From IMG/VR virus record IMGVR_UViG_3300032280_000800, positions 32,001-96,000 of that record: DNA of 64,000 nucleotides. One strand, 5' to 3'. The position numbers and the translations under genes were made by a program. This DNA comes from a virus. Taxonomy: Duplodnaviria; Caudoviricetes. The notes under the pieces were generated by a model. It ran no database searches and was not told the DNA's origin. It saw nothing but the letters and a program-made list of their open reading frames with translations. Position 1 is the stretch's first letter. The number at the start of each line of letters is the position of its first letter. This document shows positions 31,218 through 63,966 of this stretch, piece by piece.

Positions 31218-31905
31218 TAAAATATGCGTTTTTGATTTTGAGACCGATGGAAAAAATCCAGAAGAGTGTAGTCCGGTCCAGCTTTCTGCTCTAATTATTG
31301 ATCCGATTAAATTAGAGATTATACCAAAATCTGAATTTAATACGTTTCTAAAGCCAGATAAATTAATAGATACAACAATAAGTAATCCTTATACTGATTC
31401 TGACATTCTGGAGTGGCATGGCAAAATTAGAAACATATCCTCTGATCAAGTATTAGAAGAATGGAAAACTTATCCAGAGCAGAAATATGCTTGGGCACAA
31501 TTTGTAACATATTTAGATAAGTATCACCTAAAGTCTAATGGTGGCAAAAAGTCTCAATTCACAGCACCAATAGCTGCTGGATATAATATATTACGATTTG
31601 ATATGCCCATCGTGAATAGGCTGAGTAATAAATATAGTAATACAAATAAAGAGAAAGAGACATGTTTATTTCATCCACGAGATAAGATTGATATTATGCA
31701 TGTATTCGGTATGTGGATGAGCTATGTGTCAGAAGTTAAGGGACTATCTCTGGATAGTATGAGAGACTATCTGGGTATAGATAAAACAAATGCTCACAAT
31801 GCCTTAAAGGATGTTGAGGATTGTGCTCAAATTTTAATTAGATTTTTAAAGCTACATAAAAAATTAAGCCAAAAGATTAAATTCAAGGACTCGTTTAAAG
31901 TATGA
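31207..31905 (+). CDS. dnaQ: DEDDh 3'-5' exonuclease (DnaQ/epsilon-like)
   Basis: ExoI FDFETDG, ExoII AGYNILRFD, ExoIII AHNALKDV. Confidence 0.85.
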   Translation: MINNKICVFDFETDGKNPEECSPVQLSALIIDPIKLEIIPKSEFNTFLKPDKLIDTTISNPYTDSDILEWHGKIRNISSDQVLEEWKTYPEQKYAWAQFVTYLDKYHLKSNGGKKSQFTAPIAAGYNILRFDMPIVNRLSNKYSNTNKEKETCLFHPRDKIDIMHVFGMWMSYVSEVKGLSLDSMRDYLGIDKTNAHNALKDVEDCAQILIRFLKLHKKLSQKIKFKDSFKV

Positions 31906-44584: not shown

Positions 44585-46514
44585 TATCTTTATCCTTGTC
44601 TAATATTACTGTAACTGTTTCTTTTGTTGTGTTATAAAAAAATTCTATATTTTGTGTTACATATCCTTTTTTAAATATTTCCACACTGTACTTTCCATAA
44701 CCTAAATCTTTAATAATCTTATATCCACAATCGTCTAAAGTATAATTTTGACCAATTATTTTATAGCAAGCATCGATGGGGTTTATATTTAATAATACCC
44801 CGTTTTTAAATTCTGGATCAGAAAATAATAGCCTATTAGGCGGTTTATTATATACATTTAATAACGATGCGTCAATATCGAACGTGCTTGCTGATTGTAT
44901 CATAGATAATTCTCTTTCTTTTTCAGAAGAGTCTAAAATCTCTATATCAAAAGAGTCAGTATTAATAAATTCATTATTATAAATTAAAGCGCTACTATTA
45001 TTGTCTTTAATTTTAAGAATGTATTTACCATACATTAAATTATTTATTGTTAAATGATATTTATCATTAAAATTTAAAGTTCGCGTATCTCCAAACTCAT
45101 TTGTTAATATTGCAATCAAGGAGCTTTTATCAGCATTCGATACATGACAGGTTATTGACCCAAGCCTATTATTACTCTTTGTAGTTAATGACTGAGTAGT
45201 TAAATTTTTGTGTTTATTAATAAACAGTATTGGTTCAATATCTATTGTATTATTATGAATAATGTTTAATATAGTAGAAATATTATTAGAAAAATACAAT
45301 CCGCTTTTAATAAATACTTGTTTAATTTGAGTATCTATGTAACTATTGTTTGATAATTCATTTATTTTTATAATATCATTATTTTTATAAGCAAAACTAT
45401 AATCATTAGATATAATCATAGATCCTATAACTAATTTAGCTCGACCACTACCAAAAACATGTTCTAAATTAATTTCTTTATCATTAAATAAAAGCTTACT
45501 TTTTACAAAATGTGGGGCCTCTATACCTGGAGATATATAGTAATATTGATATTCTTGATCATTTATAACAATATTTCCATAATCCATACATAGTTTTTGT
45601 TCTATTTGATGATTACCATTTTTAATAGATATTTCAGACGAAAGAATATCTGAATAGTCTGAGGATTTACTTAATGGTAGCAGCAATAAATTGTATACTA
45701 CTTTAGCTTCTACAGGATCAAATAATGCCTTGGTGCTATAATCATTAAATCTACTCACATTAACAGATATTGGTTTTGGTTGACTAATAGTAAAATTTCT
45801 AATAATCTCACAATTATTTTTATCTGTAACTATTAATTTATAGTCCCCAGCAACTAACTTATAATTAATAGATGTTTGATTTACTATAATAGGCTGCGGA
45901 ACGTCTTCTTTAAACCATGCTACTTTATATGGCTCAACACCACCAGTAATATTGCAAGAAACATTGCTCGAAACCCCATTGTACTGTGTAATGGGCTCCC
46001 ATTTTATTTCTACAGATAGTGGCTTTGTAATAATTCTTATTTCTTTTTTTTCGGCTATACATCCATTTTTATCAGTAACGGATATGTTATAATAATAATT
46101 GGGCTTAATTATATAATCATAAAATGTTTGAGATGTATTAATTTTAAAATTATTAATACTTAATATATATGGGGCTAGTCCACCAGACCACTCTATATGC
46201 ATAGAAATATTATCGTTATAGCACTGTATATCTCCAACATGAACCAAGTCCATAGACAAAGCGTCTGCACAAGATAAGTCAATATCAATAGTTTCTGTTG
46301 ATTTTTTAAGTAAATTATAAATTTGAAGAGTATATACTCCACAAGATAGATTGTATACTGTTTTACCATAGTCAGCTATCAAAGCATCAGTATTAATATT
46401 AGTCCAACTAAAAGATAGTAGACCATTAGATCTATCGATAATGGTAATACTACCAGTTTTCTGATCTATGCATTTAGGCTTAACTGTTTGTATTGAATAA
46501 GATTTTGTATTCAT
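44577..46514 (-). CDS. Putative virion adhesin with SprB-like/Ig-like beta repeats
   Basis: GGLAPY..S, SVTDKNGC, ITGGVEPYKVAW, LVAGDYKLIVTDKNNC, L.YGKY.L.I match the SprB-repeat pattern. Confidence 0.6.
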   Translation of the reverse strand: MNTKSYSIQTVKPKCIDQKTGSITIIDRSNGLLSFSWTNINTDALIADYGKTVYNLSCGVYTLQIYNLLKKSTETIDIDLSCADALSMDLVHVGDIQCYNDNISMHIEWSGGLAPYILSINNFKINTSQTFYDYIIKPNYYYNISVTDKNGCIAEKKEIRIITKPLSVEIKWEPITQYNGVSSNVSCNITGGVEPYKVAWFKEDVPQPIIVNQTSINYKLVAGDYKLIVTDKNNCEIIRNFTISQPKPISVNVSRFNDYSTKALFDPVEAKVVYNLLLLPLSKSSDYSDILSSEISIKNGNHQIEQKLCMDYGNIVINDQEYQYYYISPGIEAPHFVKSKLLFNDKEINLEHVFGSGRAKLVIGSMIISNDYSFAYKNNDIIKINELSNNSYIDTQIKQVFIKSGLYFSNNISTILNIIHNNTIDIEPILFINKHKNLTTQSLTTKSNNRLGSITCHVSNADKSSLIAILTNEFGDTRTLNFNDKYHLTINNLMYGKYILKIKDNNSSALIYNNEFINTDSFDIEILDSSEKERELSMIQSASTFDIDASLLNVYNKPPNRLLFSDPEFKNGVLLNINPIDACYKIIGQNYTLDDCGYKIIKDLGYGKYSVEIFKKGYVTQNIEFFYNTTKETVTVILDKDKDNA

Positions 46515-48159: not shown

Positions 48160-51100
48160 TTATCTACCTAATCCAATCAATTCGGTAACTCTTAATTGTA
48201 TCTTATCTACTAGTCGTTTTTCGTCTTCTGGACTTAATTTATAGCTACTATCTGCTGGAGATGTTAATTCTACTTCTATCTTACCCCCTTTAAAGGTTAC
48301 TATTTCTGGAATACTTGGTCCTTTAATTTCAATAGATTTAATAGAATCTAAACCTCTAATAAAAGTATCAACATGTTTTCCAAAAGCGCTAACGGGACCA
48401 CCTAATGCAGGGAAAACTCTTGCTAGATTATTTATAAGAGCTCCTAAATTAGCAGTCTCAGCACCAAAAGATTTGATAAAGCTGTCAAATACTGTGTTGG
48501 CACTAGTCATATCAAATCCCATAGCCTTACCAAAAGATTGTGCCACGTTCATAACATTACTTCCTCCGCCAACCTTTCTATATATTGGATTAATAATTCC
48601 TCCAGATTGAGCATATGAAACTCCGCCCATACTGGGGGCGCTGCCAATACTTCCATTATTAATAGCATTTAATAGTGGTAAGTGTTTATTTGTCGCTTGT
48701 TTATTTACAACATATTCTCCACGAGTTAACATTGCTGGAATAGTATCTGTACCCTTGGGTTGATAATTTACTAAAACAGAACCACCAGAGGATAAGTATT
48801 TGGGTTTAATAACATTGTCTAGATGGCTTCTTAATTTTTTCTCTTCTAATATTTCTGGCCTATAAGCAGCTACATCATTCATATTAACTGCAACGTCTCC
48901 AAACCTATGCATACGATTATAATATTTTTGATATCCAAACCATGAAGAATTCTCTTGGGTACTATTGTCTTTAAATGTTGGAATATTCTCAAATAATAAT
49001 TTACCCAGATCAGATAATAATGGAGTGTATTGCTCGGCTTCGGATCGTTGAAGTGTCTCATCATTAAAAATTGCTTGAGCTTTTTGTTGTACTCTTTGAT
49101 GAGCTAATTGAATTTTCTCTTTAACGTCTTGACCTAAAGATGGAGATGCTGCTGGGGCTTTGGGAGGAACTACTCCTGGCTTGTCTCCACCAGCACCAGC
49201 TGCTTCAATATCCTTAGCTTCCACAGACTGCATATCTAGATGTTTTTTCAAGTAAATAAAATTTGGATTACCGAATGGTGATGGCATAGTTGGGAAATTT
49301 GAAATTTCGCCAGTATATTTGCCTCCGAGTCTAGCTACTTGTTGTTTAATCATTTCATATGGCTGTTGATACTCTGTAAATAGTCCAGAATATCCAGCAA
49401 AGAATCTATCAACAGTATCTGCTGGTATTTGTTTGTCAGCAATTTCTACCTGATTTGCTCCCCTGTAAATTTTAGGCATTCCATTATTATCAATGGTTTG
49501 CACAATAGTTTTATTAGCATTTGGATCTGGCTTATTTACTAAGTCGGCAACAGGCTCTGTGCCATAGCTTCTTAATGAATCCCAGAATTCATATGGCTTT
49601 TTAAGAGTTTTTAATCTATCTTGTATACCTTTTGCTGCTTTGTGATAAGACGTATCTGGTGTTGTTGCTTTTAAATCTTTTGAACTTAATGCTTCTAGTC
49701 TTGCTTGTCTTTCGCTTACATTACGATCCTTATTAAAATTAAGAGTGTCTACTAAGAATTCTAAAAATTTAGTTTCTCCAGATAATGGCTTATTGTCCTG
49801 ACCCATGAAAGGCTGCGCTGCTGCGTCACCAATTTCTGTATTTGCTCCGTTTAATAGATTAGCTCCTGCTGCAATTTCTCTCATTAATCCTGGAGTAATA
49901 GATTCTCTATTATTAATGGTAAATGTGTCAAGATTTTTAATTCTATCCAAAGTATTAACATCTGCTAAAACTGTATTTCTAACTTCTTCTGGGGTTCCGG
50001 GTAGTTTATAGTTGTCGTCAATTCTTTTCCATTGTTTAATGTCTTTTGGTGCTATTCCACCAAAAACCTTATCTAAATTAGCTCTCTTCCAAGTTGTATA
50101 TCCTTGTCCAAGTTTTTTACGTAAACTAGTAATTTGTTCTTCTTCTGTTTTCCCTTCTGGTTTATTATCTATAGTTAGTTTCTTAAATCCTGGATTTACT
50201 TTTTTATATATGTTAGGATTACCATCTGCCATTTGTCCAGTATACAAGCCCATAGCAGCAATAGCATTCTGATAATTCTTTATAGTTTTTGGCAAAACAT
50301 ATTGTTCTTTGGATCTATTATCAGTTTGTGACGATGTAACCCCCTTAATCTGTTTAAGGAATGCTTGCTTATAATTTTCTACAAAACTATCATCGTATGC
50401 TTTTTCTGTTGTTTGCAAGTTCCATAAACCAAACTTATCTGCAAAACTATCGGTGGTAGGATTAGCACTTGCTGTACCATACATATTTTGTAGTTTATCC
50501 AAATTCCACGATAAACTACTATTAACAGATGGTAGGGACTGTGCAATAGTTGGATCTATTTTTTGTATCCAAGCTTTAAATTGTTCATTATTTTCTGGTA
50601 TTTTTTCTTTAATACCAAGAGCACTACCATAATTCTTTAGCATTGTACTGATTAATTCATTAGTATCTCTAATGTATGGTCCAGACTCTCCGACAACATT
50701 CATCGATCCGGGTCTGCCATATGCCATATCAAAATTACTAAAAGTTTTGAATGGATTAATATGGGCTCCACCCTTTAATGGAGTATTAAATAATACGTAT
50801 TCCATAGATGGAGAAGATTCAAATTTAACGCCAGCACCAACACGATTTTTGTATAGTTTATCTAATACTTCTTGTTTTTGTCTTTCTAATAGTTTAACAG
50901 AGTCTGAGTCTCTGCCTTCTTTTTTAATTTTCTCTGCTATATCTTTGTCAATTTTCTGCATTTGTACAGTAGCTTGATTTCTTTCTTCTTCGCTAAGAGT
51001 ACCCATTCCAGTCATCATTTGGAGTGGATTGTTTTGTAAATCTTCTCTGTTTTCCCATCTGGCTCTCATAGTCCAATACTTCTCAAGCTCAGCATCATAT

Positions 51101-54100
51101 TTATCTCTTTGCTTATTAAAGAAATCCCATGCTTTGCTAGATTCAATAATGTTATTAGCTTTGGATGTTTTTTCTTCTAATTTACTGACTAATTTTTTAC
51201 GGTTATCTTCAGAATCTCCAGGGTATCCATACTTGGTTAGTAAATCATTAATAACCTTTTGTGCAGCAACTTTATCTTCTTTGGTAACTCCAGTAATACC
51301 AGCAGATCCAGAGCCACTAAAGTTTTGCGACTTAAATTTACTATCAGATAACTTATCTCGTAAATGTTTTTGTAGCATTTTACTTTGTGTTGTAACCTGT
51401 TGTGCGGCTTCTGGACCTCTTGATATTGGACTGTTATCTAGGTCTGGTATGGATCCGCCAGCAAAATCTTTAAGATATCTAGATTTTAATTCATTAAACT
51501 TATTAATAACTAAACTATTCTCATCAGTATCTGTACCAGCAATATCCTGTTGAACAACACCAAATTCTCTTAAGTATTGTTGTAATGCCTGTTCGTTCGT
51601 TTGTTTTTTCTTATCTGACGGTATTGAAGATAGTGGAGTACTAAGAATAGATGCATTTCTCGTATACGCATTAAAATCCATTTTACCATCACTTTTCATA
51701 GCTTTGGCAACAATGGCTGGAAATGGCTTTCCGTTCATATCAAAAATATCTTCTCCGTCAAATTTGTCTTCATTATTTCCTTTAAAGCCAAAATCTTGTG
51801 GTTTTGGTATTATTGGACTGGTAACATTAAATGCTGGGAAAGTATTTCCATCTACATTCGGTATTCCAAGATTATTTTGTGCGATATAATCTCGTTCTAA
51901 TTTTTTACGTAAAGCATTTCTTTCGTCAATATCCTTTTGCATATCTGGGGATATTGTCTTGGCATCTGACACTGTTTTGAGTTTCTCGTCGAGCTCTTTA
52001 AGTCTCTTATTTGCTTCTTCTCTTTCTTGTGCTCTTAACAGTTGCCCACGATCAGAGCCATCACCCAGTTCATATTTTGGTATTTTTGCTCCACGAGCAG
52101 TAAAGTTAACCGCCCCCATAGGATCTTTAAGTCCCATAGCTTGTGCAAGTTGCATCTGACCAAACATATACTGATTGTCTTTGGTAGCAAATTCTTCAGT
52201 TCTATCTCTTTGCGTTGTCTCATAAGCTCTCTTTGCTACTTCCGCATTAATTTTCATCTCTTCAATTGGGTCTGCCGACCATGTTGGTTTTGGTAATGGT
52301 CCTCCAGTAACCGGACCAGATGATCCAGAAGCTCCAGCATCTGGTGGCATTGGTCTTTCTCCAAAAACAGCATTATATGCAGCAGAACCGATACCAGATA
52401 CAATAGGCAGTGCTTGAAAAGCAAGACTAGTATAGCTTAATTTTCTCAATACATCCCACGCTTTTGCTGATGTGGTATCTCCCTTTATTTTTAATTTTTC
52501 CCAAGCCCATTTACCAACAACATCTTTATAAGACGGACCCTTGGGGGCCTTCTTTTGTTTTATTAGGAGTTTCCCCTTCCTCTTCGGATCAGGTAAAACA
52601 TTAAGACCCTGCTTTTTCAGAAGATCTAGTGCTTCGTCTTGACTAGTAGCCTCTATTGTGTCTCTTACTTCTCTTCCAGTTCGTGTGTCTAGGGCTTCAT
52701 ATATAAAAGTGGATTTTGGAGGCGTTTTTCCTGCTGCTGGAGCAGGTTTTGGTTTCGTTGAACCCGAAGGTTTTTTGGGTTTTGTTGTGTCAGAAGACTT
52801 GGGCTTGTATATGCTAGGTTTACCCTTCTCTACACTACGGCGACTAGCCAAAACATCCAAACCTTGCTTTTTAAGAAGTGCTATCGCTTCCTCTTGACTA
52901 ACCGCTTCTATCGAATCTCTTACATCCATTCCAAAAGTTTTAGAACCAGCTCGTGTATCTCTAGCTTCATATTTGAAAGTAGATTTTGGTTTTATTGGGA
53001 CTATTGGTGAATCCGCCCTTGGTTCTGCTGGAGTAGCTTCTGGTTTTGGTGCGACTGGTTTGGGAGGAGCTGCTGTTGGCTTTGTGTCTGACGCTTGTTG
53101 AGCAACCGCAGCTTCATTTGGAGTTTCTGGAGGTTTAGTTTTGGTTCCGGTTTTAGCTGCTTTTGCTTTAGCTGCTTTTCTAGCAGCATTAGCTGCTTCA
53201 CCTACTCTAGCCTGTTCAAGTAATCTTGCACGTTCTGCCATCATTTCTGGCGTTGGATTAACAACAGCCTCACCAACCACCCTCTTGGATTTTTGAACAG
53301 TTTGTTCTGTACCGTCTTTAAATAATGCTAAACTTCTATTAGTAATTTCATTAGCATTAGCGATAGGAATACTATTGGGAGAAAGTTTAATAGCATTAGA
53401 TGTAATAGCGCCATTCTGTAACATTTTTGAGCTTACTGAGGTCGCTTTACCAAAAGCTGATGTCATACCCTTTCTGATCATATCATCAGCAGCAGCACCT
53501 CCCATTAACTCAGCACCAAAGCCTATCCACTGTCCTCCTGAATATGATTCTGGACTAGCCTTCATCTTGTCCATAACTCTCTTCTTCATAGATGCTGGAA
53601 TATATTTATTCCAGATATATGAATTTATATCTTGTCCTATTTGATCTCCAAGCATACCTCCAGTAAAGCCTAAAGATAATGCTCCAGCGGTTCCTGTAAC
53701 GATTGCTCCTGGGCCAGTAATCAAGCCGCCCAGAGTTCCGATGGATCCACCGGCAATTGCACCTAAACCACCACCAACAGCACCCAATACCCCAGGAATT
53801 GCTTTACTAGCCAAGCCATACATTAGACTTTCGAAATCAGCTGGCTCAAGGCCTAGTTTAGTATTTCTAAAAGCATTATCAACCTTCATAAATTCTGGAG
53901 TAAATGGAAAATTTCTATCTCCACCGAAGTAATTTTCTTCTAACGGATTACGTCCACCAGTGATTCGTTTATCATACTGTATAGCGTGAGCAGCTTCGTA
54001 GGTTTTGTACCAATCCAAACTCGGACCAGGTTTAAGTTGTTTGTCTCTAAATGCTATTGCTTTATTTAAACTTTGATTGATTTGTTGAGTTTTGTTTTTA

Positions 54101-57100
54101 TCTCCTCCAAAACCTAAAAATCCAGCAGCTTGTTTCTTTTCTTTTTGTAAATTGTCTATCAAAAGATCATTATCTGATAATATCTTATATTTTTGTTGTG
54201 CGGACGTTGAGAGGTATTTCTCATGATGCCCTGATACTGCCGAATTATAACTCTTTAATTCTGACTTATTCAGTATGTTGTCTTTTGAGTTTGATCTAAA
54301 ATCTACATACTTTAATAGATCGCTCTGTGGAAAATTATTTAAAGGAATATGATCGGATGTTCCAGCTAATTTTTCCCACTCTGTATCTGGCACTATGGGG
54401 AATCTACTGCGAACACTACGGTCTAATAAACCTCCCTTAGATAAATATTTAACGCTGCCACCATTACTATACTTACCACTATTTATACTTTGTAATAATG
54501 GTAAATTCCTAGCTGTAGCAGCTCTATTAACAACGAATTCTCCCGGTGTTAACATTGCTGGAACAGTATCTGTTCCTTTGGGAGCAAAATCAACCATAGA
54601 GCCCATAGCGTAATAACTTATTAAACCACCTTTAGCTTTAGGAACAGCTCCGTCCACTCCTCCCAACCCTAATCTATTAGCAACACCATTTAATTGATCA
54701 ACAATATCAGTAATAGCTGTTCTCATCTTATTTGTAAAATCATCAGCGGATAACGACAGAGCCTGTGCTAATAATTGTCCGCTATCAGATATTAATCCTG
54801 ATTGAGCCATAACAGCTTCTGTTTGAATTTTGGCAGCTTGGTTGAATGCATCTATGTATGGTTTAATTTGTGGATTTTCTTGTGGTCTACCAAAATCAGG
54901 ACCGAATACTTCTTTAAACTGATCAAATACAGCGGGGTCTCCGCCAGCATTACCCAGTATGCGTGTAATATTATCAAATAATTCTTTTTGTAAGCGGGCA
55001 AATTCTTCTGGTGTTCTAGTAGATTCCAAAGATTGTAATGTTGATATTGCTCCCGGAATATCTTGTCTGCCACCAGCACCACCAACAACTCTATTGTAAG
55101 ACTCAGTATCTTTAGCAAAATTAAACATAGCTTCAGGATTATCTAACATACCAAAGAAATCCATAACACTACGACGACGACCAGCAGAAATTTGTGATTG
55201 TTCATCAATCTTCTTAAGAGCGGCAGAAGCCCTATCTGTATTATTCGCTAGTGTATCTAGTGCTTTAGTATATTTATTAATTTTTGATGTTAGTTTTGCA
55301 ATTTCGCCTGAGCCTAACGCGCTAGTTGCTGTTCCAGGATCGCTTTCTAGTATTCTCTTTCTGGCAACAGCATCCGCTATTTCTTTACCAATAGCAGTTG
55401 GATCTGTTATACCTCCAGTTAATCCTCTAACAGCAGAGTCTGATGGGTCAGTAAGCTCTCTTAATGAGATTGTTTGATTAAACTTTTCTTTAAGCTGTAT
55501 GGCGCTTTGTAAATTGATGTCTTGTACTCTCACAGTATTATCTGCTAATTTATCAAAATTACCAGCTAGCTGATCAGACACTGCACCAAGCTTACGATTA
55601 ACATCTATTTGTTTCTTAGCATAATCTTCAAATGTTGCTCTAGCTTTTTCGGCAGCATCACTCAATTCTTTGAACGCTTGAACATCATTTGCAAGTTCTT
55701 CCATGGTCATGCCTTGTCTATTCATACTAGTACTAGCCCTTATCCACTTCATGACCTCGTCTTCTAGTTCTTTACGAATATCTGGAGACATATCAAGTCC
55801 ACCAAACATGTTTGTTAGTCTTGAACGAACATTAGCTTCTGAACCAGCCGAAATATCAGCATTTGCCGTATCTCTTAATATTAAAGGCAATTCTTGTTGA
55901 ATAGCCTGAAAGCCTTTAATAAAATCCCCCATTTGTTTGGTTTGCTTATTATCTCCTAAACTCTTACCCACACTATCTACAGCAGATGCTAGCTCCTCTC
56001 TGCTATATGCTGTGATATTTTCTAGAATCCTAGCGTTTTGTGAATCTCCTTCATAGGCTTTGGCACCTCCGCCAGATAATTCACCAGCAACACTCATAGC
56101 TCTATCAGCACTTGCTCCTATTTCAGATACAATACGAGTCATGCTTGTTGATAGTCTATTCATAATATCAACAATATCTAATGTGAATTTTTTAACTGAT
56201 CTATTAACAATCTCAAGTCTAGCTGCTAGTATTCTAGATCTATTTTCTCCACCTAGTTCTTTTTCTACAATAGCATCGATGTTGTCTGCTGCTGTTTTAT
56301 TTTGGACTTTACCTTCTGGTGAGTAAGCTTGTTGATATTCTTTAACTGCTGTGGCTTCGTCCATACCTTGTCTTTGTCTGGCTTCATAATATATTCTTTT
56401 TCTAAGCTGGTCCTGTGCTTTAGCAACAGCCTCATCTGCTTTTTTACGTTTCTCAGAACCCGGCGCTAATGTGTCTAAAAATTCTTGTACGGTCTGAGAA
56501 TTATCTACCTTCATTCCTTGAGCTTCTAAATTACTCCGCATCTGTTGTTCTTGTAAAATATTTAAAGAATTAAGTCTACCAGCACTGTCTTTTGATCTAC
56601 CATATGCTGCTCTTCTTTGGTCTGCTGTTAGAGCAGCCTTCTCTATTGGTTGGCTTTGAGTAAGAACTCTTTCTGCAAAGGCTTGATTGCTAGTAGCGAA
56701 CGCTTCGGTATTGTCTGCAATCTTTCTAAGTTGAATCAAACTCTCCATTTCTTTTTTAGCTTGTTCTATATCTTTACTATTATCAAAATAACCTTTGAAA
56801 CCTTCAAATACTCCAACTAATTGAGATATAACAAATGCTATTTCTAATAGACCAGCGGCGCCACCACCCTTATATCCTCTAACAGCACCACCAGAAGCTA
56901 AGTGCTGAACACCTCCTGATGAAACTTTTGGTGATCTACCTGATGTTGAAATTTTGCTAGAAAACGCCCCAACAGAACCACCACGAGCAACTCTTTGTTG
57001 TTCTTGTATAGCATTTGGTTTCATTACTTGAGAATTAAACATATCTTGTACAGACGATGATTTTATAACATAACTGAACGGCTTTACAGAAGTAGATACA

Positions 57101-60100
57101 GTATCAACATTGCTTGGTGCTCCCGGAACAATGTATGCTGACCCCAATTTCTGAGCAACTGTATTATTAACAGCACTTGCTCCACCACGATTAAGAGCGT
57201 CCAATTCTTGTATACTAGCTGGTAACGGTGGAGGTATAACCATCTCACCTTTTGCTAATTTAACAGGAACTAATCCTCCAGCAGACAACCCTACTCTACC
57301 GCCAGCAGCTTTTCTACTACGCCTTCTGCCTCCTCCACCGCTGGGCATACCTCCTCCTATACGACTACCAATTTGAGCAGCTACCATCATACCCATAATG
57401 CTTGTCATAGTTGATAGCATACCTTCAAGGCCACTAGCAAAAGCATTCCATACTTTATTATCCTTAATGGTTGTAGCTGATTTTTCTAAAGAAACATTTA
57501 ATGCTTGATAGTTTCTATTCATTCTATCTAATAGTTCTTCTCTTTCTCCAAAAGTTTTAGCAGTAGCAAGCTCTCCTAGTGTTTTGTTGAGTTCGTTTGA
57601 AGCTCCAGCCACACCTCTCATAGCAAGTTCGGTTTCTTTGGCTGTTGATTCTTTTATGAAACCAGCAACAGCACCGCTGGCTATACCAGCAGCACCACCT
57701 ATAGCAGCACCCTTACCCTTAAAAGCCTGAGCGCCGATTAATGCTCCACTCATACCGTATGAGCCAGCGCTTTGTAATGCTCCAGTAAAACCAGCTAGTG
57801 CTGGACTAGTATCAGAAACAGTACCAGCAAATTGATCTAAGCTATTTAATATGGACGGCATTTGTGCGCTTAGTTGTGTTGCTCCTAAGCCTATAATACC
57901 AGTAATACCACCTATTTTATCTCCCATCTTGGTAACTCTGTCAGCAACTTTGGGAAAAGATCTCTCTATTAATCCCATTCCTGGAAGATTAGCTGTACTG
58001 TTAGCTCGTGCAACCCTGTCTAATCTTTGTCCTGTTGTCGATTCTAAATTTCTTTGAGCCTGCCTTAAGTTTCCTTGTTCAAAGGCTCCAAACTTACCTT
58101 CCTTAAGAGACTGTTGTGCCCTAACATCAATACCCCTCACCTTCATTTTGCCGGTTAAGAACCCTAGTTCTTTTTCAAATTCTGAATGAGCGTGTTCTAA
58201 TTCTGATAAGATTGTAATATCTTTATCTATAACGTTTGCTAATCCCTTAGAATCAAGGCTAGTTTTAATATCAGCAATAGAAGAGCCTCCTACTTTCTGC
58301 ATACTTGCTATGATATCGTCTATAGATTTAGCTAAATCTGTTTCACCTATTTTAGGATCAATTTTCTTAAATAACTCAGTAAGTCCTTCTCTGGTAGTTT
58401 TTTCAACATCTACATCTCCAATCTGACCCATATTTTTAGTAATTAGGTCTTGTATATCTGTTTGCGCAGTTGTCTTCTCCTCTGTCGCTTTTTCTGCCCT
58501 ATTGTAAATTTGCTGTCTTATATTACGTTCATATTGTTGAAGGCTAATGCCGAGTTTATCAACAATTCTTTGTAAATAATCCATTCTATCAGCATCAACA
58601 GAGCCACCTCCTGCAAATTTACGGAGACCAACTCCACCACCACGATTAAGCCCTAAAGCTTTGGTCGCCTTTGCTCTCAAAACAAAACTACCAACTGGTA
58701 GATTAGTTCTGATGCTGTCGCTAGTACCACTACCCGGCCCTTTAAATACTCCAACGCCACCACCTACCGCAAAACTTCCCATACCATTTTTATCAGCTTG
58801 GTTCATGCGGCCTAGCCTGCCATATCCTATACTTTTGGCAGTTGCCGGAGGAATGTAAGCCTCTCCATTACTAACTAGCGCAGGAACAGTTCCTCCCCCA
58901 GCAAATTGCGTAATGAATCCGCCATTAGCTTTTTGTTCAGCATCTTTGTTTCTATTGGCTCCTAAAAATTTAAATACATCATCAAAAGATCCACTATATA
59001 CAATCTTAGCGCCACCTTCTGGATCATGCTCAAAAACATCATACCAAGTCCTTTTAGAATTAAAGGAATCCATGATGCTTTTACCTTCTCTCCACGAATA
59101 TTTCTTACTCGGAGTTCCTCCGTCTGCAAACTTTTGTAGTATTCCTCCATGAGATTTTTTAGTAGGTAACTTCTGCCCCATGGCTTTAAGAATATTATCT
59201 AATTCGGATACGGCAATATCTCCACTACCATACTGATCTAATAAAGCATATAGGGTCTCTGATAATGCGGTTACTCTACCTTGATTTGGTACTGACGTTC
59301 CCTTGGCTAGCTCCTGATAATCTGGCCAAGCCTTTTGTGCTTTAGATAGTTTGCGTTGAATAGAAGTTTTTTCGTCAGGGTCTTTTGTTGACTTTAATTC
59401 ATCTTCTAATTCGCTAATATAGCTTGGAAAAGATGATCTAATATGACTATCAATTGATGGATCAAAAGATAACTGTCCAGTTTTCTTAAACGAGCCTATA
59501 GCTTCTTCTGCTTGTGTATAAGCAGTATTACGACTTTCTGCCATTAGCGCTGCTGATGCTCTAGCTTCTTTAGCTGCTAGTGCTGGATTTTTTGTTTGTA
59601 CTGACTTACCAAATGGTAATACTTCTTCTATCTCTGTATACCATCCGTCATATTGCTTAATTAAATCTGGCTTAAGGGCTTCTAAAGCTTCTGGTTCTAT
59701 ATCATCTGGTAACTTAACTAATTTTTTGCCAATAGCAATACCAGCGCCACCAGATTCAAAAGTCCACTTGTTAAGCTTATCATAATAATCAGCTAATACT
59801 TTGGGAAGCTTAATGCCGTAATGATCTGACCACTCAACACTATCATCGGTATCCGCATCCCTATAGGCTTGCGCAGCAAATGCGGCGTGATCTGATGGTG
59901 ATAGTGGAACAAATCCACGAGCACCATAGGCCCCTCTTCTTTTGTTCTTGGTAGATCTATCTGGCTTAACGCCTCCCATAGACCCATCATCAAAAGCTTG
60001 AACTTGCCCACCCTCAAACCATTTACTAGGATTCTCATCATAATATCTACCAAACTCTTTACGAGCTCTATCAAAAGCATAGCCAGTAAGAGTTCTCTTT

Positions 60101-63100
60101 ACTTCTGTTGGAATATTACTTGGTATACCAAAATATTTAGCAGCTGGGCCGAGACCATTTTCAAAGTCTACAGCTCTATTTTGTTCTAGTTGAGCAATTG
60201 GTGGTAGGCTGGCACCAAGCTCTGCTAATGCTGCCTCTACGACAGCGCCCTCAATATTTCCTTGACCCATTAACTCTTGATATTCTGGAGCTAGTCCTGG
60301 CTCTTTATAGAGATAAGCTTTTTTTCCAGATTTTTCAGCAGCACCAACATTATCTGCGTTATCATCAATTAATTTTTCTGCTTTACTTAAATTAGCTGCT
60401 TTGGCACTAGCAATATCTGTTCCAAGACCCTGACTGACTCCGGTAATATCTTCTTTACGGTAAGGTAAACCAAAACTCTGAAGAGTCTGTGCCAAAAGAT
60501 CCTCAGTATTTTGTGGTCTAGCAGTAAGGACTCTGGTTTGTTTAATAAAGTCTGGATTGGCATCTATTAGAGATTTTAACTTGGCTCCTAGTTTTGTTAA
60601 TCTACCCTTCTTTAGAGCTTCTTCTACGACGGTTCTATCAGAATATTTGGGAATGTCAGGCTTGCCTTTTTCATTAAGAATATCTGCTCCAGCAACTAAA
60701 GTTTCATCAAAATCGAAAGCTAATGGCTCGCCAGTGAATATATCGGCATATTGTAGATTTTCTGCAAACTGACTCTTAGCGGATGCTGTTTGTTGTTGCA
60801 TTTTAGTAACAGCATCGAAATATTGGGACTTGAAGCCTCTAGCATAAGCATAAACAGTGCGATTATTACCAATATCCCAATTATCAAAATCTTTAGAATA
60901 ATCTAATTTACCCTGACTATCTACTAAACCAACAACACCAACCTTTTTCATTTTTTCAACTTTGGCAGCATACTCTGCGTCTTGTACTCCCTTAGACGAT
61001 AGAGCATTATTGATTACGTCTGAAGCACCAAGTAAATCTATCTGCCCCTTAGAAATCATGTCTTTCCTAAGCCTTCTGCGTAGATTAGTAGGGATAGCCG
61101 TTAGTTCTGCTACACCAGCTTCGTTACCTAGTCCGGCTAATTGCTTAACTAAAACATCTCTAACAGCTTCTTCTATACTTAATCCTGCGTCACTCTTAAG
61201 GCTCTTTTTAGCTAAAATACCAACTTGTCCATAAGGTCTTAATAAGCTTTCATCAACATCAACTTCACCAGCATCAGCAAATTTTTGTATGAATCCTCCA
61301 TTGGATTTTTTATTTGCCAGCACTTCTCTCATTCCTGTAGTAATATTATGACGTCCGCTATTTCCTTCTTTCTTATATGCGGCGGGCTGATTGAATCCTG
61401 CTAATAATTTTTTAGCTTTGTCGTCTTTGTCAGTTACAACCTGTTCAATAGATTGTGTTAATACTCCTGGTAAAATTTTTGATACCTCAGGATCAGTATC
61501 ATAAAAATCGTTGCCTAAAGCTTTTATATTAGCAGCTAACTGTTTTTTTAAGGGCGTGTAATTATCATTCAGTATTTCTTGTTCTTCTGAATCTCCTCTA
61601 CCTGTGAATCTAAATCTCTTATTGCTACCAGTTCTTAAAGATTTGAAAACATCTCTACTCTTAACATAAGAAGCTAATTTACTATTAAAAGACCCTTCAT
61701 TATTTATGATATATTTACCATCTACTTGCTTGGCCCAGTCAGCATTCCAAGTTTCTGGTAAGTCAAGCCCCATATTACTATAAAGCCTAGTAATATTCCC
61801 ATAACCATTTTCTTGAGCATATTTTTTTAAATTTTTTGGAATATCAGTTTGAGTTTTAGCTAGCTCTATATGAGTAAAATCAGTATCTCCACCAGAAGGA
61901 AGTTGTTTATTAACTGTTTTAGATTTTTTAACTCCCTTATCACCAGATGACCCCTTACCAAATCTTTGTACAACTCCCCCACTATTCATAGCATCTAGTG
62001 TGTCTGTGCCATATTTATTAACAGCATCACGACTCATAACATATTCTCTTGGCTCTAATAGAGCAGATACTTTGTCTCCTCTACCAGTACCAGGAACACT
62101 ACCACCTCTTTTAAATCCTAATATCTTGCCTCCATTACTAGCTGTTGTTGGACTAGTTGGGCTAGATCCTCCTGTTGTAAGAGACAGAGTATCTATAGCT
62201 TGAGTTAGATTATTTAAGCCAATAATCATATTTGCTAATGTAATATTAACAATCGATAATTGTGATGTATTTGCTGCTGTAGCAATAGTATTGGCTTTTA
62301 CAGATTTGGAACTTGCTGGAGTACCCTTACCACCTTTGCCTCCAGAACCTCCTGAGCCGCCACCACCTGGACCGCCACCACCTGGACCGCCACCAGAACC
62401 ACCTCCTCCAGTTGGAGGTCCACCAGAACCACCACTTGGTGCTCCACCTCTGCCAATACCTCCTACAAACCCAGAAGCAAATTCACTAAGAATAGAAGCT
62501 CCCTTAATAGCGGCCAAGGCTGTCAACATTGGCAATAGTGGCTTGAGTGCTGATGCCATAGAAATAAAAGCATTGGCTGTGGTTAAGCTAATGGTTGCAA
62601 TTGTTCTAAATGTACTACTATTACCAATATCTCTAATTAAAGCAACAAATGCTTGTCGTGTTTTTTCAAACTGAACAGCTAATGATTGTTGAGCTTGTAC
62701 AGCGTTTTTGCTTAATGATGCCTGACCATTTTGAGCAACTGATAAGGCATCTTGAGCAGTGGCGAATTGTTGAATAAGTGGGATAACTTTACCTATTTGT
62801 CTAAATCCACCAAGCTCTTCTACTATTTTAGAAAATCTTATATCTCTAGGATCAAGACCGGATAACCCTTCACTTAATCTTCTTACGGCCTCATATGGCC
62901 CAACGAACTTCCCTTCTAGATCGGTTAATACTATGCCGTACTCCTTTAAAGCTTCTATTGTTGAGCCTCTCTGAATTCTAGTAAAAATAGTCCTTAAGCC
63001 CGTAGCAATAGTTTCTGCACTTTCACGAGTTGTTGCTCTAACACTAGTAAATAAAGCAACGAATTCATTTAAAGCGTCTGTGCCTTTGCTAACTCCATTG

Positions 63101-63966
63101 CTAGCAGCAGCAAAAACACCACCGGTCCTTTGAATAGCTGTGATAATATCTCCGGCCTCAACAGCAAATGCAGCAGCTACAGCATTGATACTACCCAAAG
63201 CACCCTCTAGCTCACCAGTACTAATATTAAACTGACGCATTAAAGCAATACTGCCTTCGACCGTACTATTTAAATCATCAAAGGATGGAGCTAATGCCGA
63301 CTTGGCTAGGGCTTCTAATGCTGTTTTGGTGTCTTGGGCAGATAATCCTGCCTGTGCTAGTGTCACTGACACTTGTAGTAAATCGGACGAAGTCACACCC
63401 AAATTGGTAGATAGTCTTGTAATTTCTTTGGTAATATCAGATAGTCCCGAAACACTTGTTCCAGTAACTTGTGATAATCTAACTATCTCTTTATCAAAAT
63501 TAACGAATTCTTTAAAAGCACTATTAACTGCATTGGTTAAGCCATAAATAACACCAGTAACCGTACTAAAAGCAGCAAACCTTCTAATAGCTAATCCAGA
63601 CTGCTTACCAAACTCTTGCATTTGTGTACCAGCAACAGAAACAGCTTTACCAGCATTGCTAGCGGCTTTACCTGTTGCTGCCAATGTTGTTGGTCCAGAA
63701 GAACCTAGTCCTCCTAAGCTAGTTGCTAATTGTTGTATGCTAGCACTTAATTGATTAATATTACTATTAGCTTTAATCGCATTAGTAGAAATATTTTGTA
63801 ATCCCTTATTAACTGTAGCTATACTTTTAGAAGCCGATCCTTTGAGGTCTAAATCAACCTTAACTTTAATATTAGATAATTGTTTTCTAATAGAAGAAGC
63901 AATAGCTCTTGTATTTGTAGGACCTCGTAGATTAATCTGTGCAGTTAAATTAAATGCTGCTGCCAT
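48160..63966 (-). CDS. Giant tape-measure protein (TP901-like N-terminal domain) with multiple accessory domains
   Basis: 5268 aa; N-terminal FDKEIVRLSQVTG...LAQAG...AVEAGDI..AIQRTG...TRESAETIATGLRTIFTRI; repeated GTD.VPAMLT.GE.VV modules; glycine-zipper hydrophobic segments. Confidence 0.85.
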   Translation of the reverse strand: MAAAFNLTAQINLRGPTNTRAIASSIRKQLSNIKVKVDLDLKGSASKSIATVNKGLQNISTNAIKANSNINQLSASIQQLATSLGGLGSSGPTTLAATGKAASNAGKAVSVAGTQMQEFGKQSGLAIRRFAAFSTVTGVIYGLTNAVNSAFKEFVNFDKEIVRLSQVTGTSVSGLSDITKEITRLSTNLGVTSSDLLQVSVTLAQAGLSAQDTKTALEALAKSALAPSFDDLNSTVEGSIALMRQFNISTGELEGALGSINAVAAAFAVEAGDIITAIQRTGGVFAAASNGVSKGTDALNEFVALFTSVRATTRESAETIATGLRTIFTRIQRGSTIEALKEYGIVLTDLEGKFVGPYEAVRRLSEGLSGLDPRDIRFSKIVEELGGFRQIGKVIPLIQQFATAQDALSVAQNGQASLSKNAVQAQQSLAVQFEKTRQAFVALIRDIGNSSTFRTIATISLTTANAFISMASALKPLLPMLTALAAIKGASILSEFASGFVGGIGRGGAPSGGSGGPPTGGGGSGGGPGGGGPGGGGSGGSGGKGGKGTPASSKSVKANTIATAANTSQLSIVNITLANMIIGLNNLTQAIDTLSLTTGGSSPTSPTTASNGGKILGFKRGGSVPGTGRGDKVSALLEPREYVMSRDAVNKYGTDTLDAMNSGGVVQRFGKGSSGDKGVKKSKTVNKQLPSGGDTDFTHIELAKTQTDIPKNLKKYAQENGYGNITRLYSNMGLDLPETWNADWAKQVDGKYIINNEGSFNSKLASYVKSRDVFKSLRTGSNKRFRFTGRGDSEEQEILNDNYTPLKKQLAANIKALGNDFYDTDPEVSKILPGVLTQSIEQVVTDKDDKAKKLLAGFNQPAAYKKEGNSGRHNITTGMREVLANKKSNGGFIQKFADAGEVDVDESLLRPYGQVGILAKKSLKSDAGLSIEEAVRDVLVKQLAGLGNEAGVAELTAIPTNLRRRLRKDMISKGQIDLLGASDVINNALSSKGVQDAEYAAKVEKMKKVGVVGLVDSQGKLDYSKDFDNWDIGNNRTVYAYARGFKSQYFDAVTKMQQQTASAKSQFAENLQYADIFTGEPLAFDFDETLVAGADILNEKGKPDIPKYSDRTVVEEALKKGRLTKLGAKLKSLIDANPDFIKQTRVLTARPQNTEDLLAQTLQSFGLPYRKEDITGVSQGLGTDIASAKAANLSKAEKLIDDNADNVGAAEKSGKKAYLYKEPGLAPEYQELMGQGNIEGAVVEAALAELGASLPPIAQLEQNRAVDFENGLGPAAKYFGIPSNIPTEVKRTLTGYAFDRARKEFGRYYDENPSKWFEGGQVQAFDDGSMGGVKPDRSTKNKRRGAYGARGFVPLSPSDHAAFAAQAYRDADTDDSVEWSDHYGIKLPKVLADYYDKLNKWTFESGGAGIAIGKKLVKLPDDIEPEALEALKPDLIKQYDGWYTEIEEVLPFGKSVQTKNPALAAKEARASAALMAESRNTAYTQAEEAIGSFKKTGQLSFDPSIDSHIRSSFPSYISELEDELKSTKDPDEKTSIQRKLSKAQKAWPDYQELAKGTSVPNQGRVTALSETLYALLDQYGSGDIAVSELDNILKAMGQKLPTKKSHGGILQKFADGGTPSKKYSWREGKSIMDSFNSKRTWYDVFEHDPEGGAKIVYSGSFDDVFKFLGANRNKDAEQKANGGFITQFAGGGTVPALVSNGEAYIPPATAKSIGYGRLGRMNQADKNGMGSFAVGGGVGVFKGPGSGTSDSIRTNLPVGSFVLRAKATKALGLNRGGGVGLRKFAGGGSVDADRMDYLQRIVDKLGISLQQYERNIRQQIYNRAEKATEEKTTAQTDIQDLITKNMGQIGDVDVEKTTREGLTELFKKIDPKIGETDLAKSIDDIIASMQKVGGSSIADIKTSLDSKGLANVIDKDITILSELEHAHSEFEKELGFLTGKMKVRGIDVRAQQSLKEGKFGAFEQGNLRQAQRNLESTTGQRLDRVARANSTANLPGMGLIERSFPKVADRVTKMGDKIGGITGIIGLGATQLSAQMPSILNSLDQFAGTVSDTSPALAGFTGALQSAGSYGMSGALIGAQAFKGKGAAIGGAAGIASGAVAGFIKESTAKETELAMRGVAGASNELNKTLGELATAKTFGEREELLDRMNRNYQALNVSLEKSATTIKDNKVWNAFASGLEGMLSTMTSIMGMMVAAQIGSRIGGGMPSGGGGRRRSRKAAGGRVGLSAGGLVPVKLAKGEMVIPPPLPASIQELDALNRGGASAVNNTVAQKLGSAYIVPGAPSNVDTVSTSVKPFSYVIKSSSVQDMFNSQVMKPNAIQEQQRVARGGSVGAFSSKISTSGRSPKVSSGGVQHLASGGAVRGYKGGGAAGLLEIAFVISQLVGVFEGFKGYFDNSKDIEQAKKEMESLIQLRKIADNTEAFATSNQAFAERVLTQSQPIEKAALTADQRRAAYGRSKDSAGRLNSLNILQEQQMRSNLEAQGMKVDNSQTVQEFLDTLAPGSEKRKKADEAVAKAQDQLRKRIYYEARQRQGMDEATAVKEYQQAYSPEGKVQNKTAADNIDAIVEKELGGENRSRILAARLEIVNRSVKKFTLDIVDIMNRLSTSMTRIVSEIGASADRAMSVAGELSGGGAKAYEGDSQNARILENITAYSREELASAVDSVGKSLGDNKQTKQMGDFIKGFQAIQQELPLILRDTANADISAGSEANVRSRLTNMFGGLDMSPDIRKELEDEVMKWIRASTSMNRQGMTMEELANDVQAFKELSDAAEKARATFEDYAKKQIDVNRKLGAVSDQLAGNFDKLADNTVRVQDINLQSAIQLKEKFNQTISLRELTDPSDSAVRGLTGGITDPTAIGKEIADAVARKRILESDPGTATSALGSGEIAKLTSKINKYTKALDTLANNTDRASAALKKIDEQSQISAGRRRSVMDFFGMLDNPEAMFNFAKDTESYNRVVGGAGGRQDIPGAISTLQSLESTRTPEEFARLQKELFDNITRILGNAGGDPAVFDQFKEVFGPDFGRPQENPQIKPYIDAFNQAAKIQTEAVMAQSGLISDSGQLLAQALSLSADDFTNKMRTAITDIVDQLNGVANRLGLGGVDGAVPKAKGGLISYYAMGSMVDFAPKGTDTVPAMLTPGEFVVNRAATARNLPLLQSINSGKYSNGGSVKYLSKGGLLDRSVRSRFPIVPDTEWEKLAGTSDHIPLNNFPQSDLLKYVDFRSNSKDNILNKSELKSYNSAVSGHHEKYLSTSAQQKYKILSDNDLLIDNLQKEKKQAAGFLGFGGDKNKTQQINQSLNKAIAFRDKQLKPGPSLDWYKTYEAAHAIQYDKRITGGRNPLEENYFGGDRNFPFTPEFMKVDNAFRNTKLGLEPADFESLMYGLASKAIPGVLGAVGGGLGAIAGGSIGTLGGLITGPGAIVTGTAGALSLGFTGGMLGDQIGQDINSYIWNKYIPASMKKRVMDKMKASPESYSGGQWIGFGAELMGGAAADDMIRKGMTSAFGKATSVSSKMLQNGAITSNAIKLSPNSIPIANANEITNRSLALFKDGTEQTVQKSKRVVGEAVVNPTPEMMAERARLLEQARVGEAANAARKAAKAKAAKTGTKTKPPETPNEAAVAQQASDTKPTAAPPKPVAPKPEATPAEPRADSPIVPIKPKSTFKYEARDTRAGSKTFGMDVRDSIEAVSQEEAIALLKKQGLDVLASRRSVEKGKPSIYKPKSSDTTKPKKPSGSTKPKPAPAAGKTPPKSTFIYEALDTRTGREVRDTIEATSQDEALDLLKKQGLNVLPDPKRKGKLLIKQKKAPKGPSYKDVVGKWAWEKLKIKGDTTSAKAWDVLRKLSYTSLAFQALPIVSGIGSAAYNAVFGERPMPPDAGASGSSGPVTGGPLPKPTWSADPIEEMKINAEVAKRAYETTQRDRTEEFATKDNQYMFGQMQLAQAMGLKDPMGAVNFTARGAKIPKYELGDGSDRGQLLRAQEREEANKRLKELDEKLKTVSDAKTISPDMQKDIDERNALRKKLERDYIAQNNLGIPNVDGNTFPAFNVTSPIIPKPQDFGFKGNNEDKFDGEDIFDMNGKPFPAIVAKAMKSDGKMDFNAYTRNASILSTPLSSIPSDKKKQTNEQALQQYLREFGVVQQDIAGTDTDENSLVINKFNELKSRYLKDFAGGSIPDLDNSPISRGPEAAQQVTTQSKMLQKHLRDKLSDSKFKSQNFSGSGSAGITGVTKEDKVAAQKVINDLLTKYGYPGDSEDNRKKLVSKLEEKTSKANNIIESSKAWDFFNKQRDKYDAELEKYWTMRARWENREDLQNNPLQMMTGMGTLSEEERNQATVQMQKIDKDIAEKIKKEGRDSDSVKLLERQKQEVLDKLYKNRVGAGVKFESSPSMEYVLFNTPLKGGAHINPFKTFSNFDMAYGRPGSMNVVGESGPYIRDTNELISTMLKNYGSALGIKEKIPENNEQFKAWIQKIDPTIAQSLPSVNSSLSWNLDKLQNMYGTASANPTTDSFADKFGLWNLQTTEKAYDDSFVENYKQAFLKQIKGVTSSQTDNRSKEQYVLPKTIKNYQNAIAAMGLYTGQMADGNPNIYKKVNPGFKKLTIDNKPEGKTEEEQITSLRKKLGQGYTTWKRANLDKVFGGIAPKDIKQWKRIDDNYKLPGTPEEVRNTVLADVNTLDRIKNLDTFTINNRESITPGLMREIAAGANLLNGANTEIGDAAAQPFMGQDNKPLSGETKFLEFLVDTLNFNKDRNVSERQARLEALSSKDLKATTPDTSYHKAAKGIQDRLKTLKKPYEFWDSLRSYGTEPVADLVNKPDPNANKTIVQTIDNNGMPKIYRGANQVEIADKQIPADTVDRFFAGYSGLFTEYQQPYEMIKQQVARLGGKYTGEISNFPTMPSPFGNPNFIYLKKHLDMQSVEAKDIEAAGAGGDKPGVVPPKAPAASPSLGQDVKEKIQLAHQRVQQKAQAIFNDETLQRSEAEQYTPLLSDLGKLLFENIPTFKDNSTQENSSWFGYQKYYNRMHRFGDVAVNMNDVAAYRPEILEEKKLRSHLDNVIKPKYLSSGGSVLVNYQPKGTDTIPAMLTRGEYVVNKQATNKHLPLLNAINNGSIGSAPSMGGVSYAQSGGIINPIYRKVGGGSNVMNVAQSFGKAMGFDMTSANTVFDSFIKSFGAETANLGALINNLARVFPALGGPVSAFGKHVDTFIRGLDSIKSIEIKGPSIPEIVTFKGGKIEVELTSPADSSYKLSPEDEKRLVDKIQLRVTELIGLGR
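52590..52985 (-). repeat. Duplicated ~40-aa PilC/GspF N-terminal-like domain inside the tape-measure gene
   Basis: STFKYEARDTRAG...VRDSIEAVSQEEAIALLKKQGLDVL and STFIYEALDTRTGREVRDTIEATSQDEALDLLKKQGLNVL; similarity also visible at DNA level. Confidence 0.8.
62335..62465 (-). repeat. Gly/Pro/Ser-rich low-complexity linker in the tape measure
   Basis: GGGSGGPPTGGGGSGGGPGGGGPGGGGSGGSGG directly after the TP901-like domain. Confidence 0.85.

Follow-up and report, generated by a model that had tools for sequence, protein, structure and literature searches.

What does a tape measure protein (TMP) of 5,268 amino acids do besides setting the length of a phage tail? The question is raised by a gene at 48160..63966 on the minus strand of a 64,000-nucleotide stretch of DNA from a virus of the Caudoviricetes. 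This stretch, referred to here as the window, comprises bases 32001-96000 of the 111,749-bp IMG/VR virus record IMGVR_UViG_3300032280_000800. The completeness of the record is estimated at 79%, which gives a genome size of about 140 kb. A preliminary description, made from the sequence alone, proposed that the protein doubles as an array of injected effectors punctuated by double-glycine linkers. Here, we compare the protein with its relatives and with known systems. We find it rather likely that the protein combines the roles of ruler and enzyme carrier, as does gp96 of Thermus phage P23-45. The phage would probably have a very long tail that also brings ready-made enzymes into the host.

A single gene encodes a giant TMP

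The gene forms one unbroken frame of 5,268 codons. Its product (P0001) starts with an N-terminal TP901-type TMP domain (N-domain, aa 1-500, 62467..63966; all features of the protein lie on the minus strand). Within it, residues 180-374 match the Pfam family PF10145 (PhageMin_Tail, TP901-type) with an E value of 2.7e-24 and 86.6 bits against a cut-off of 33.2, in agreement with the TP901-like domain named in the preliminary description. The domain is kept in 65 of the 66 relatives (1.5-6.5 kaa) over which a coverage profile was computed. Tape-measure families of PHROGs match the N-terminus as well as modules 6 (phrog_17300) and 7 (phrog_25241), which are described below, near the C-termini of those families.

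The record is a metagenomic contig with an estimated completeness below 100%, and this is the only point in favor of an artefact, in which an assembly chimera or sequencing errors would have fused separate genes. Collinear proteins of 5,291 and 5,467 aa, 92% identical, are present in independent assemblies, together with others of 5,035-5,483 aa at 62-67% identity. These relatives come from NCBI, ENA, JGI and Logan assemblies and are annotated as TP901-family TMPs, and the same architecture is found on hundreds of IMG/VR contigs. Because independent assemblies contain collinear proteins of similar length, we regard an artefact as having practically no likelihood. Judged by sequence, this is a true tail tape measure of TP901 type, from an uncultured phage that resembles siphoviruses. 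Among cultured phages, the best match reaches 25% identity, over the N-domain, and the phage lineage is by this measure very divergent.

A joint module recurs along the protein

Behind the N-domain, a module of about 75 aa recurs with the pattern GGxIxxFAxGG…D(T)VPAxLxxGE(F/Y)V…LxxiNxG…GG, in which a second GG-flanked strand stands at the end. We refer to it as the joint; it also exists in a short stand-alone form, GGxIQKFAxGG. All eight motif sites listed in the preliminary description were located, at residues 604-677, 890-900, 1319-1332, 1607-1617, 1673-1793 (two tandem cores), 2216-2365 (two cores), 3106-3183 and 5054-5127. A hidden Markov model (HMM) built from module copies finds seven cores in the protein and 2-8 per relative. 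In 67 family proteins, the strict pattern of the short linker is found 112 times, compared to zero in their shuffled versions. When stand-alone short linkers are counted separately, there are 28 copies and again none in shuffles, and these copies are conserved at the level of single residues across very divergent surroundings.

Module 1 (aa 604-677, 61936..62157; HMM score 76) is kept in about 45 of the 66 relatives. Modules 2 and 3 form a tandem (aa 1673-1793, 58588..58950; scores 57 and 33) that is kept as a pair across relatives, and modules 4 and 5 (aa 2216-2365, 56872..57321; scores 9 and 43) are degenerate. The best-conserved copy is module 6 (aa 3106-3183, 54418..54651; score 99), present in 63 of the 66. 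Module 7, the terminal joint (aa 5054-5127, 48586..48807; score 71), is followed by a C-terminal tail (aa 5128-5268, 48163..48585). This arrangement is typical of the family: the residues after the last module number about 90-160 in most complete family TMPs, with a median of 140 in the best 148 representatives of the library search described below. The Pfam family PF28597, which is annotated on this protein and on its relatives P0002 and P0003, was considered as a description of the joint and rejected, as other relatives carry the joint without it.

The linker is not a peculiarity of this protein. The sequence profiles indicate that the joint is a widespread, general TMP element. A profile of 71 module copies matches gp16 of mycobacteriophage Douge twice (aa 965-1028 and 1413-1465; E 6e-14) and lambda gpH at residues 729-786 (E 4e-4). 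Using tblastn, the module is found in 174 cultured phage records, which include TM4, many Gordonia phages, jumbo Brevundimonas siphoviruses and Nodularia phages; 136 of the matching records belong to Gordonia or Mycobacterium phages. The PHROG TMP profiles contain the module 70-80 positions before their C-terminal end. In a library of 1.84 billion representatives of protein clusters at 50% identity, 30,950 proteins have the module, 1,608 of them at E<=1e-30, with several joint copies per protein among the matches listed at this threshold. The top matches reach 7,872 aa and 13 matched stretches, and the N-domain is common to 132 of the best 148 representatives. The profile, tblastn, PHROG and library matches together show that ordinary TMPs have one or two modules near the C-terminus, and that the giant family has multiplied the module.

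The joint and TMP cleavage

The lambda match lies in a protein that is processed. gpH is cut in a Gly-rich region into gpH* and the ~14-kDa gpHC (~aa 690-853), and a 2025 study of lambda describes both the cleavage site and the catalyst as still unknown (PMC12617516). The module homologue at aa 729-786 falls inside gpHC. The giant TMP could be a true polyprotein. Its GG linkers and modules would then be proteolytic sites at which it is split, either while the tail is assembled or once it has been ejected, to yield pieces of the ruler along with free effectors. The residue-level conservation of GGxIQKFAxGG across divergent cassettes would fit a recognition site. Against this, no peptidase family is detected at E<=0.1 in the 5,268-aa protein or at 1e-4 to 1e-5 in 133 variable segments of the family, although a divergent peptidase is possible. 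T5 pb2, the other TMP known to be cut, has no match to the module profile, and the lambda sequence is without the nearly invariant Asn of the module. The codons of the QKF core of the short linker are also the preferred AT-rich ones, so that selection on the protein and on the DNA cannot be separated. We consider a polyprotein improbable.

Since the lambda cut is unmapped, the tie between module and cleavage in lambda is a lead and not a fact. It is conceivable, and in our view doubtful, that the joint and its short form constitute a self-contained release element that also marks the gpH*/gpHC cut, which would make the giant TMPs programmable injection polyproteins. If so, the tail lumen would transport whatever cassette stands between two joints, which would be expelled before the DNA and released in the host, and phages would trade effectors via recombination at the joints.

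Segments between the joints are exchanged

More than 534 relatives of the TMP family are found in IMG/VR. The 78 loci retrieved encode TMPs of 1,515-6,457 aa with 2-8 modules each; a locus search with one protein as query returned only two near-identical loci. Module number correlates with TMP length (r = 0.83). The longest tape measure proteins among those examined, P0016, P0017 and P0031, have 7,122-7,872 aa, with 8-11 modules by HMM and 11-13 matched stretches in the library search. Internal duplication was considered as the origin of such lengths and rejected: P0016 and P0018 contain no long internal repeats, and the helical core described next is present as a single copy in each of the 60 of 148 representatives in which BLAST detected it.

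The coverage profile distinguishes a scaffold from variable regions, as the preliminary description had anticipated when it called for an alignment of homologues. The scaffold includes the N-domain, the modules (about 45-63 of the 66 relatives), a helical core at aa ~2560-3105 (~35 relatives, at 22-26% identity) and the C-terminus (25-37). The core belongs to segment H2 (aa 2366-3105, 54652..56871), which begins with a transmembrane (TM)-like helix at aa 2368-2390, as judged from relatives and hydropathy. Coverage drops to 9-27 relatives over aa 680-1670, to 6-9 over aa 1800-2560 and to 2-6 over aa 3200-5040.

The transitions between the two coincide with the joints. Of the ends of long alignments (high-scoring segment pairs), 42% are no more than 30 aa away from a joint, compared to 19% at random, and breakpoints cluster at aa 660, 900, 1320, 1610, 3180 and 5040. 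In sliding comparisons with P0002-P0005 and the TMP of locus L028, identity steps sharply at the joints. P0002 and P0003 are 97-100% identical to the 5,268-aa protein outside one segment, termed B1 (aa 678-889, 61300..61935), which separates module 1 from the first short linker and in which identity is 35-58%; B1 thus represents an allelic cassette replacement. For P0004 and L028, identity to the 5,268-aa protein is 87-100% over aa 901-1620 and 78-98% over aa 3121-3540, and falls to about 25-60% over most of the remaining sequence. In P0003 and L028, a cassette of ~177 aa with an ADP-ribosyltransferase (ART) domain (PF03496) is placed exactly between two copies of GGxxQ(R/K)FGKG. P0004 has an extra cassette of ~230 aa that is bounded by glycine motifs. 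This cassette, at aa ~1680-1905 of P0004, contains LYHGS…GFYVYS, which by eye could be an H-Y-E-type ADP-ribosyltransferase-like signature.

The first variable region lies between module 1 and the module 2 + 3 pair. B1 ends at the short linker GGFIQKFADAG (aa 890-900, 61267..61299), recognized by its pattern and coinciding with homology breakpoints. Cassette B2 (aa 901-1318, 60013..61266) extends to the linker GGQVQAFDDGSMGG (aa 1319-1332, 59971..60012), identified in the translation at a breakpoint cluster at aa 1300-1330. It is followed by cassette B3 (aa 1333-1606, 59149..59970), which few relatives have, by the linker GGILQKFADGG (aa 1607-1617, 59116..59148), which fits the pattern and has breakpoints at aa 1600-1620, and by the mini-cassette B4 (aa 1618-1672, 58951..59115), flanked by this linker and module 2. 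The extra cassette of P0004 is inserted after B4. Among relatives, the B2-type HAD cassette described below and the ART cassettes occupy differing positions; by the module maps of the relatives, these fall downstream of the first module and ahead of the module pair that follows it. This interval makes up 16% of the total length of these proteins and harbors 81% of their stand-alone short linkers.

On this sequence evidence, the joints are conserved and coincide with recombination breakpoints. The scaffold of N-domain, modules, helical core and C-terminus is constant, and the segments between joints are swapped with breakpoints at the joints. The breakpoints at the linkers, the replacement of B1 and the ART cassette between two linker copies fit the proposal that linkers may be junctions for cassette exchange.

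Predicted enzymes among the cassettes

B2 is the cassette with the clearest predicted function. In 12 homologues, which are 30-94% identical, the HAD motifs DFDxTL, TARP, K and DD do not vary, with D185/D187/T189 (motif I), T248 (II), K289 (III) and D301/D302 (IV) in the expected order. The HAD part corresponds to about aa 1078-1222 (window ~60301-60735). An AlphaFold2 model of B2 has a predicted local distance difference test score (pLDDT) of 82.7. Foldseek places HAD phosphatases on top, with a probability of 1.0 to phosphoserine phosphatase and AphA. The structural alignments by VIA-align point to the 3'-phosphatase of T4 Pnkp (Z 11.2, root-mean-square deviation 3.2, 123 aligned), Pnkp1 of Clostridium (Z 10.8) and T4 PNK (Z 10.4), and a profile search of the PDB with the whole of B2 gave nothing significant. 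According to its model, B2 is a folded HAD phosphatase of polynucleotide 3'-phosphatase type with intact catalytic motifs.

The last 95 residues of B2 form an E...D...ExK region. E20, D43 and E64-x-K66 are invariant or nearly so and are located on predicted helix-strand-strand-helix elements. At the motif level, this part fits a PD-(D/E)xK nuclease; it has no PDB profile match, and the fold searches are dominated by the HAD domain. The HAD phosphatase named in the preliminary description is borne out by motifs and predicted fold, and the possible nuclease stands as a motif. A proposed PilC-like pair found no support in Pfam or the PDB. It consists of two ~45-aa repeats within Pro/Lys-rich linkers (B6, aa ~3690-3840), which have no match to Pfam T2SSF at E<=1 and no single-sequence match in the PDB.

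B6 is part of the second variable region (aa 3184-5053, 48808..54417), which comprises B5, B6 and B7. B7 is a block of 1,191 aa (aa 3860-5050). Its AlphaFold2 model, based on 3 sequences, consists mostly of helices at a pLDDT of 39.9. Of the blocks described earlier as globular-looking, B2 has a confident fold, and the low-confidence model of B7 makes no case for a globular one. Neither B1 nor B3 has a usable match in the ESM Atlas, and ten separate blocks of the protein have no Pfam match at the cut-off.

Relatives add to the one confident enzyme and the motif-level nuclease of B2. Of the 133 variable segments, a non-redundant set of 91 kaa, about 5 match Pfam, as ART (two clusters), DnaJ, EF-hand and a glycine-zipper-type family. 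The DnaJ match (E 9e-6), the EF-hand match (E 3e-7) and the C19orf12/glycine-zipper match each concern single variable segments of relatives (loci L053-L082).

Tail length and the case for a carrier

The preliminary description held a tail of ~0.8 µm, as expected from a protein of this size, to be implausible. This is contradicted by known phages. The 5,002-aa TMP of P23-45 sets an extraordinarily long tail (PMC10770324), given as ~800 nm in a preprint abstract, and the tail of P74-26 is nearly 1 µm long (PMC10034513). Nodularia phage vB_NpeS-2AV2, a siphovirus with a 139-kb genome, has a tail of 795 nm (PMC6293099). Its TMP (L083, KU230356.1 124378-134592) has 3,404 aa with two joint cores at aa 1006-1117, and the ratio of 0.23 nm of tail per residue is above the usual 0.15. 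From a volume of ~0.133 nm3 per residue, we infer that three chains of 5,268 aa would occupy no less than ~170 nm of a 4-nm lumen if packing were complete, and roughly double this length at realistic packing. Given this volume, the tail would be several hundred nm long even with compact cassettes.

These tails would also suit a protein that is a ruler only. Its tail would measure ~0.8-1 µm, the embedded domains and variable segments would be filler or spacers, and the module would be a recurring structural element. The volume estimate demands a long tail anyway, B7 is predicted to be helix-rich, and nearly all of the variable sequence is without a Pfam family. This view does not account for the invariance of all four HAD catalytic motifs down to 30% identity, the confident fold of B2 and the Pfam-supported ART cassettes of relatives. 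We judge a ruler without cargo function unlikely. The two views are compatible, as P23-45 gp96 is both ruler and enzyme carrier.

Several findings weigh against the combined role of ruler and carrier. The demonstrable enzyme is one cassette, about 8% of the length of the protein. B7 may be plain ruler, as judged from its model. Because so few variable segments match any Pfam family, the effector array of the preliminary description is shown for a small part only: it holds for B2 and for a few cassettes of relatives, and the rest is either novel or plain ruler. No stand-alone homologue of B2, as would point to its capture from a free gene, was found among proteins of 222-781 aa. The sole match in that search is a 736-aa protein on a 4.4-kb contig, with 21% of the query covered, which is probably part of a broken TMP. 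Among cultured phages, no member of the TMP family was found. Finally, none of the ten neighbors of the TMP gene matches a tail family in PHROGs or Pfam, and the place of the gene in a tail module therefore rests on the gene itself.

Comparison with known systems

The closest precedent is gp96 of P23-45 (also in P74-26, G20c and TSP4), in which a virion RNA polymerase is fused to the TMP (PMC10770324). The polymerase constitutes the N-proximal part and transcribes pre-early genes after ejection. Both proteins have about 5,000 aa, a folded enzyme in the N-proximal part and transmembrane segments. While the enzyme of gp96 acts in the host after ejection, the catalysis and delivery of B2 are predicted. 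The cargo also differs, being a HAD phosphatase here, with ART in relatives, compared to a two-barrel RNA polymerase in gp96. gp96 has a metallopeptidase domain and none is detected in the 5,268-aa protein, and no repeated joint or cassette exchange is described for gp96 (PMC10770324). No sequence relation between the two proteins was found; gp96 was not searched for the module.

Lambda gpH resembles the giant TMP in that the module is followed by a short C-terminal tail, which in lambda binds the tip hub; residues 818-849 of gpH bind the hub protein gpI (PMC12617516). gpH has 853 aa, a single module copy and no cassettes, compared to seven cores and three short linkers here. The same module occurs in Douge gp16, TM4 gp17 and the TMPs of Gordonia phages. 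These actinobacteriophage TMPs are 1-2 kaa long and have one or two modules and peptidoglycan-acting cargo, whereas up to seven cores are found here and the cargo is of a nucleic-acid or NAD type that needs the cytoplasm. Small functional motifs embedded in mycobacteriophage rulers were reportedly noted by Piuri and Hatfull in 2006.

Other long TMPs have enzymatic parts as well, but with muralytic cargo. YomI of Bacillus phage SPbeta, annotated as a transglycosylase, is a weak match to the N-domain (24% identity), and T5 pb2 is cut, with a proposed role of its C-terminal piece in cell-wall degradation in the periplasm (PMC12617516). The polyvalent proteins that Iyer et al. described in 2017 for phages and conjugative elements are large virion-delivered polypeptides that string together disparate domains including ART, and were likened to a viral polyprotein (PMC5512222). 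That paper nowhere mentions tape measure proteins. A zincin-like metallopeptidase is the hub domain of polyvalent proteins and is present in about a third of them (PMC5512222). It is not detected in the giant TMP, whose cassettes are set apart by a conserved and specific joint.

TMPs that bear enzymes are already known, from P23-45 and, with muralytic motifs, from mycobacteriophages, SPbeta and T5, and so are polyvalent injected proteins. The claim of an undescribed system was too strong, because gp96 is a TMP fused to an injected enzyme. In the literature searched, we found no account of a conserved TMP joint multiplied up to 13 times, of a cargo bay with short-linker-delimited cassettes swapped between near-identical phages, or of a joint that matches the cleaved region of lambda gpH.

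Remaining segments and neighboring genes

A Gly-rich low-complexity spacer, evident in the translation, connects the N-domain to module 1 (aa ~500-603, 62158..62469), and many homology breakpoints fall at aa 480-540. Segment H1 (aa 1794-2215, 57322..58587), present in 6-9 of the 66 relatives, contains a hydrophobic Gly-rich stretch that is TM-like by hydropathy at aa 2086-2104.

In seven loci (L044, L045, L051, L054, L056, L057 and L062), a second giant open reading frame (ORF) of 2,300-3,300+ aa directly follows a shorter TMP of 1,826-2,642 aa. These ORFs are located at about 16,000-27,000 in each locus and have no joint module. They were considered as split-off cargo and rejected, as they have no similarity to the 5,268-aa TMP.

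The TMP gene lies in a co-directional block of large late-type genes. Among 20 neighboring genes searched against PHROGs and Pfam, only replication genes, a glycosyltransferase and an Ig-like domain could be named, and no tail protein. The product of the second gene downstream of the TMP, 645 aa long (44577-46514, minus strand), contains a Hoc-like Ig domain (phrog_2973, E 8e-7). Three further proteins on the downstream side, of 535, 325 and 1,030 aa, match neither PHROGs nor Pfam. Replication and nucleotide genes occupy 14384-26386 of the plus strand, including a ribonucleotide reductase (17244-19436; phrog_367, E 1.7e-105) and a DnaB-like helicase (24905-26386; phrog_19). A 630-aa ORF at 29153-31045 (plus strand) matches only positions 43-617 of the 1,190-position DNA polymerase profile phrog_405 (E 4.5e-159), and the region 29153-33509 (plus strand) fits a split polymerase gene. 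The glycosyltransferase is at 34057-35670 (phrog_2170).

Discussion

We propose that the giant TMP combines a constant scaffold with exchangeable cargo. The scaffold would comprise the N-terminal TMP domain, seven copies of the ~75-aa joint, the helical core at aa ~2560-3105 and the terminal module with its ~140-aa tail. Two variable regions would be filled with exchangeable cassettes, the first of which, the cargo bay at aa 678-1672, is divided by GGxIQKFAxGG linkers. The whole protein would reside in the tail lumen and set a tail of several hundred nm to about 1 µm, with the C-terminal tail anchored in the tail-tip hub.

Anchoring of the TMP C-terminus in the tail tip was shown for Douge and lambda. 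Because TMPs are anchored in this way, the C-terminal part would leave first and the N-proximal cargo last. The protein would be expelled ahead of the DNA, and the cassettes of the cargo bay would exit next to the DNA and reach the cytoplasm. Such a late exit suits enzymes with cytoplasmic substrates, such as nucleic-acid ends and NAD+. The cassettes may then act on nucleic acids and proteins of the host or the phage, similar to the TMP-fused RNA polymerase of P23-45. For the joints, we envisage a conserved structural or docking role, together with use as homologous junctions at which cassettes are exchanged.

Even if the protein acts as a ruler alone, it indicates that there is a large group of uncultured, aquatic-type phages whose tails are close to 1 µm long. 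The joint match at lambda gpH 729-786 offers a concrete place to seek the cleavage site and mechanism in lambda. If the cassettes are delivered, the lumen of the siphovirus tail would be a second cargo hold beside the capsid. It would be filled according to a modular grammar that combines scaffold, joint and cassette and that recurs in more than 1,600 protein clusters (50% identity) with a joint match at E <= 1e-30. The cassettes consist almost entirely of uncharacterized sequence and may be a source of new host-takeover or counter-defence enzymes.

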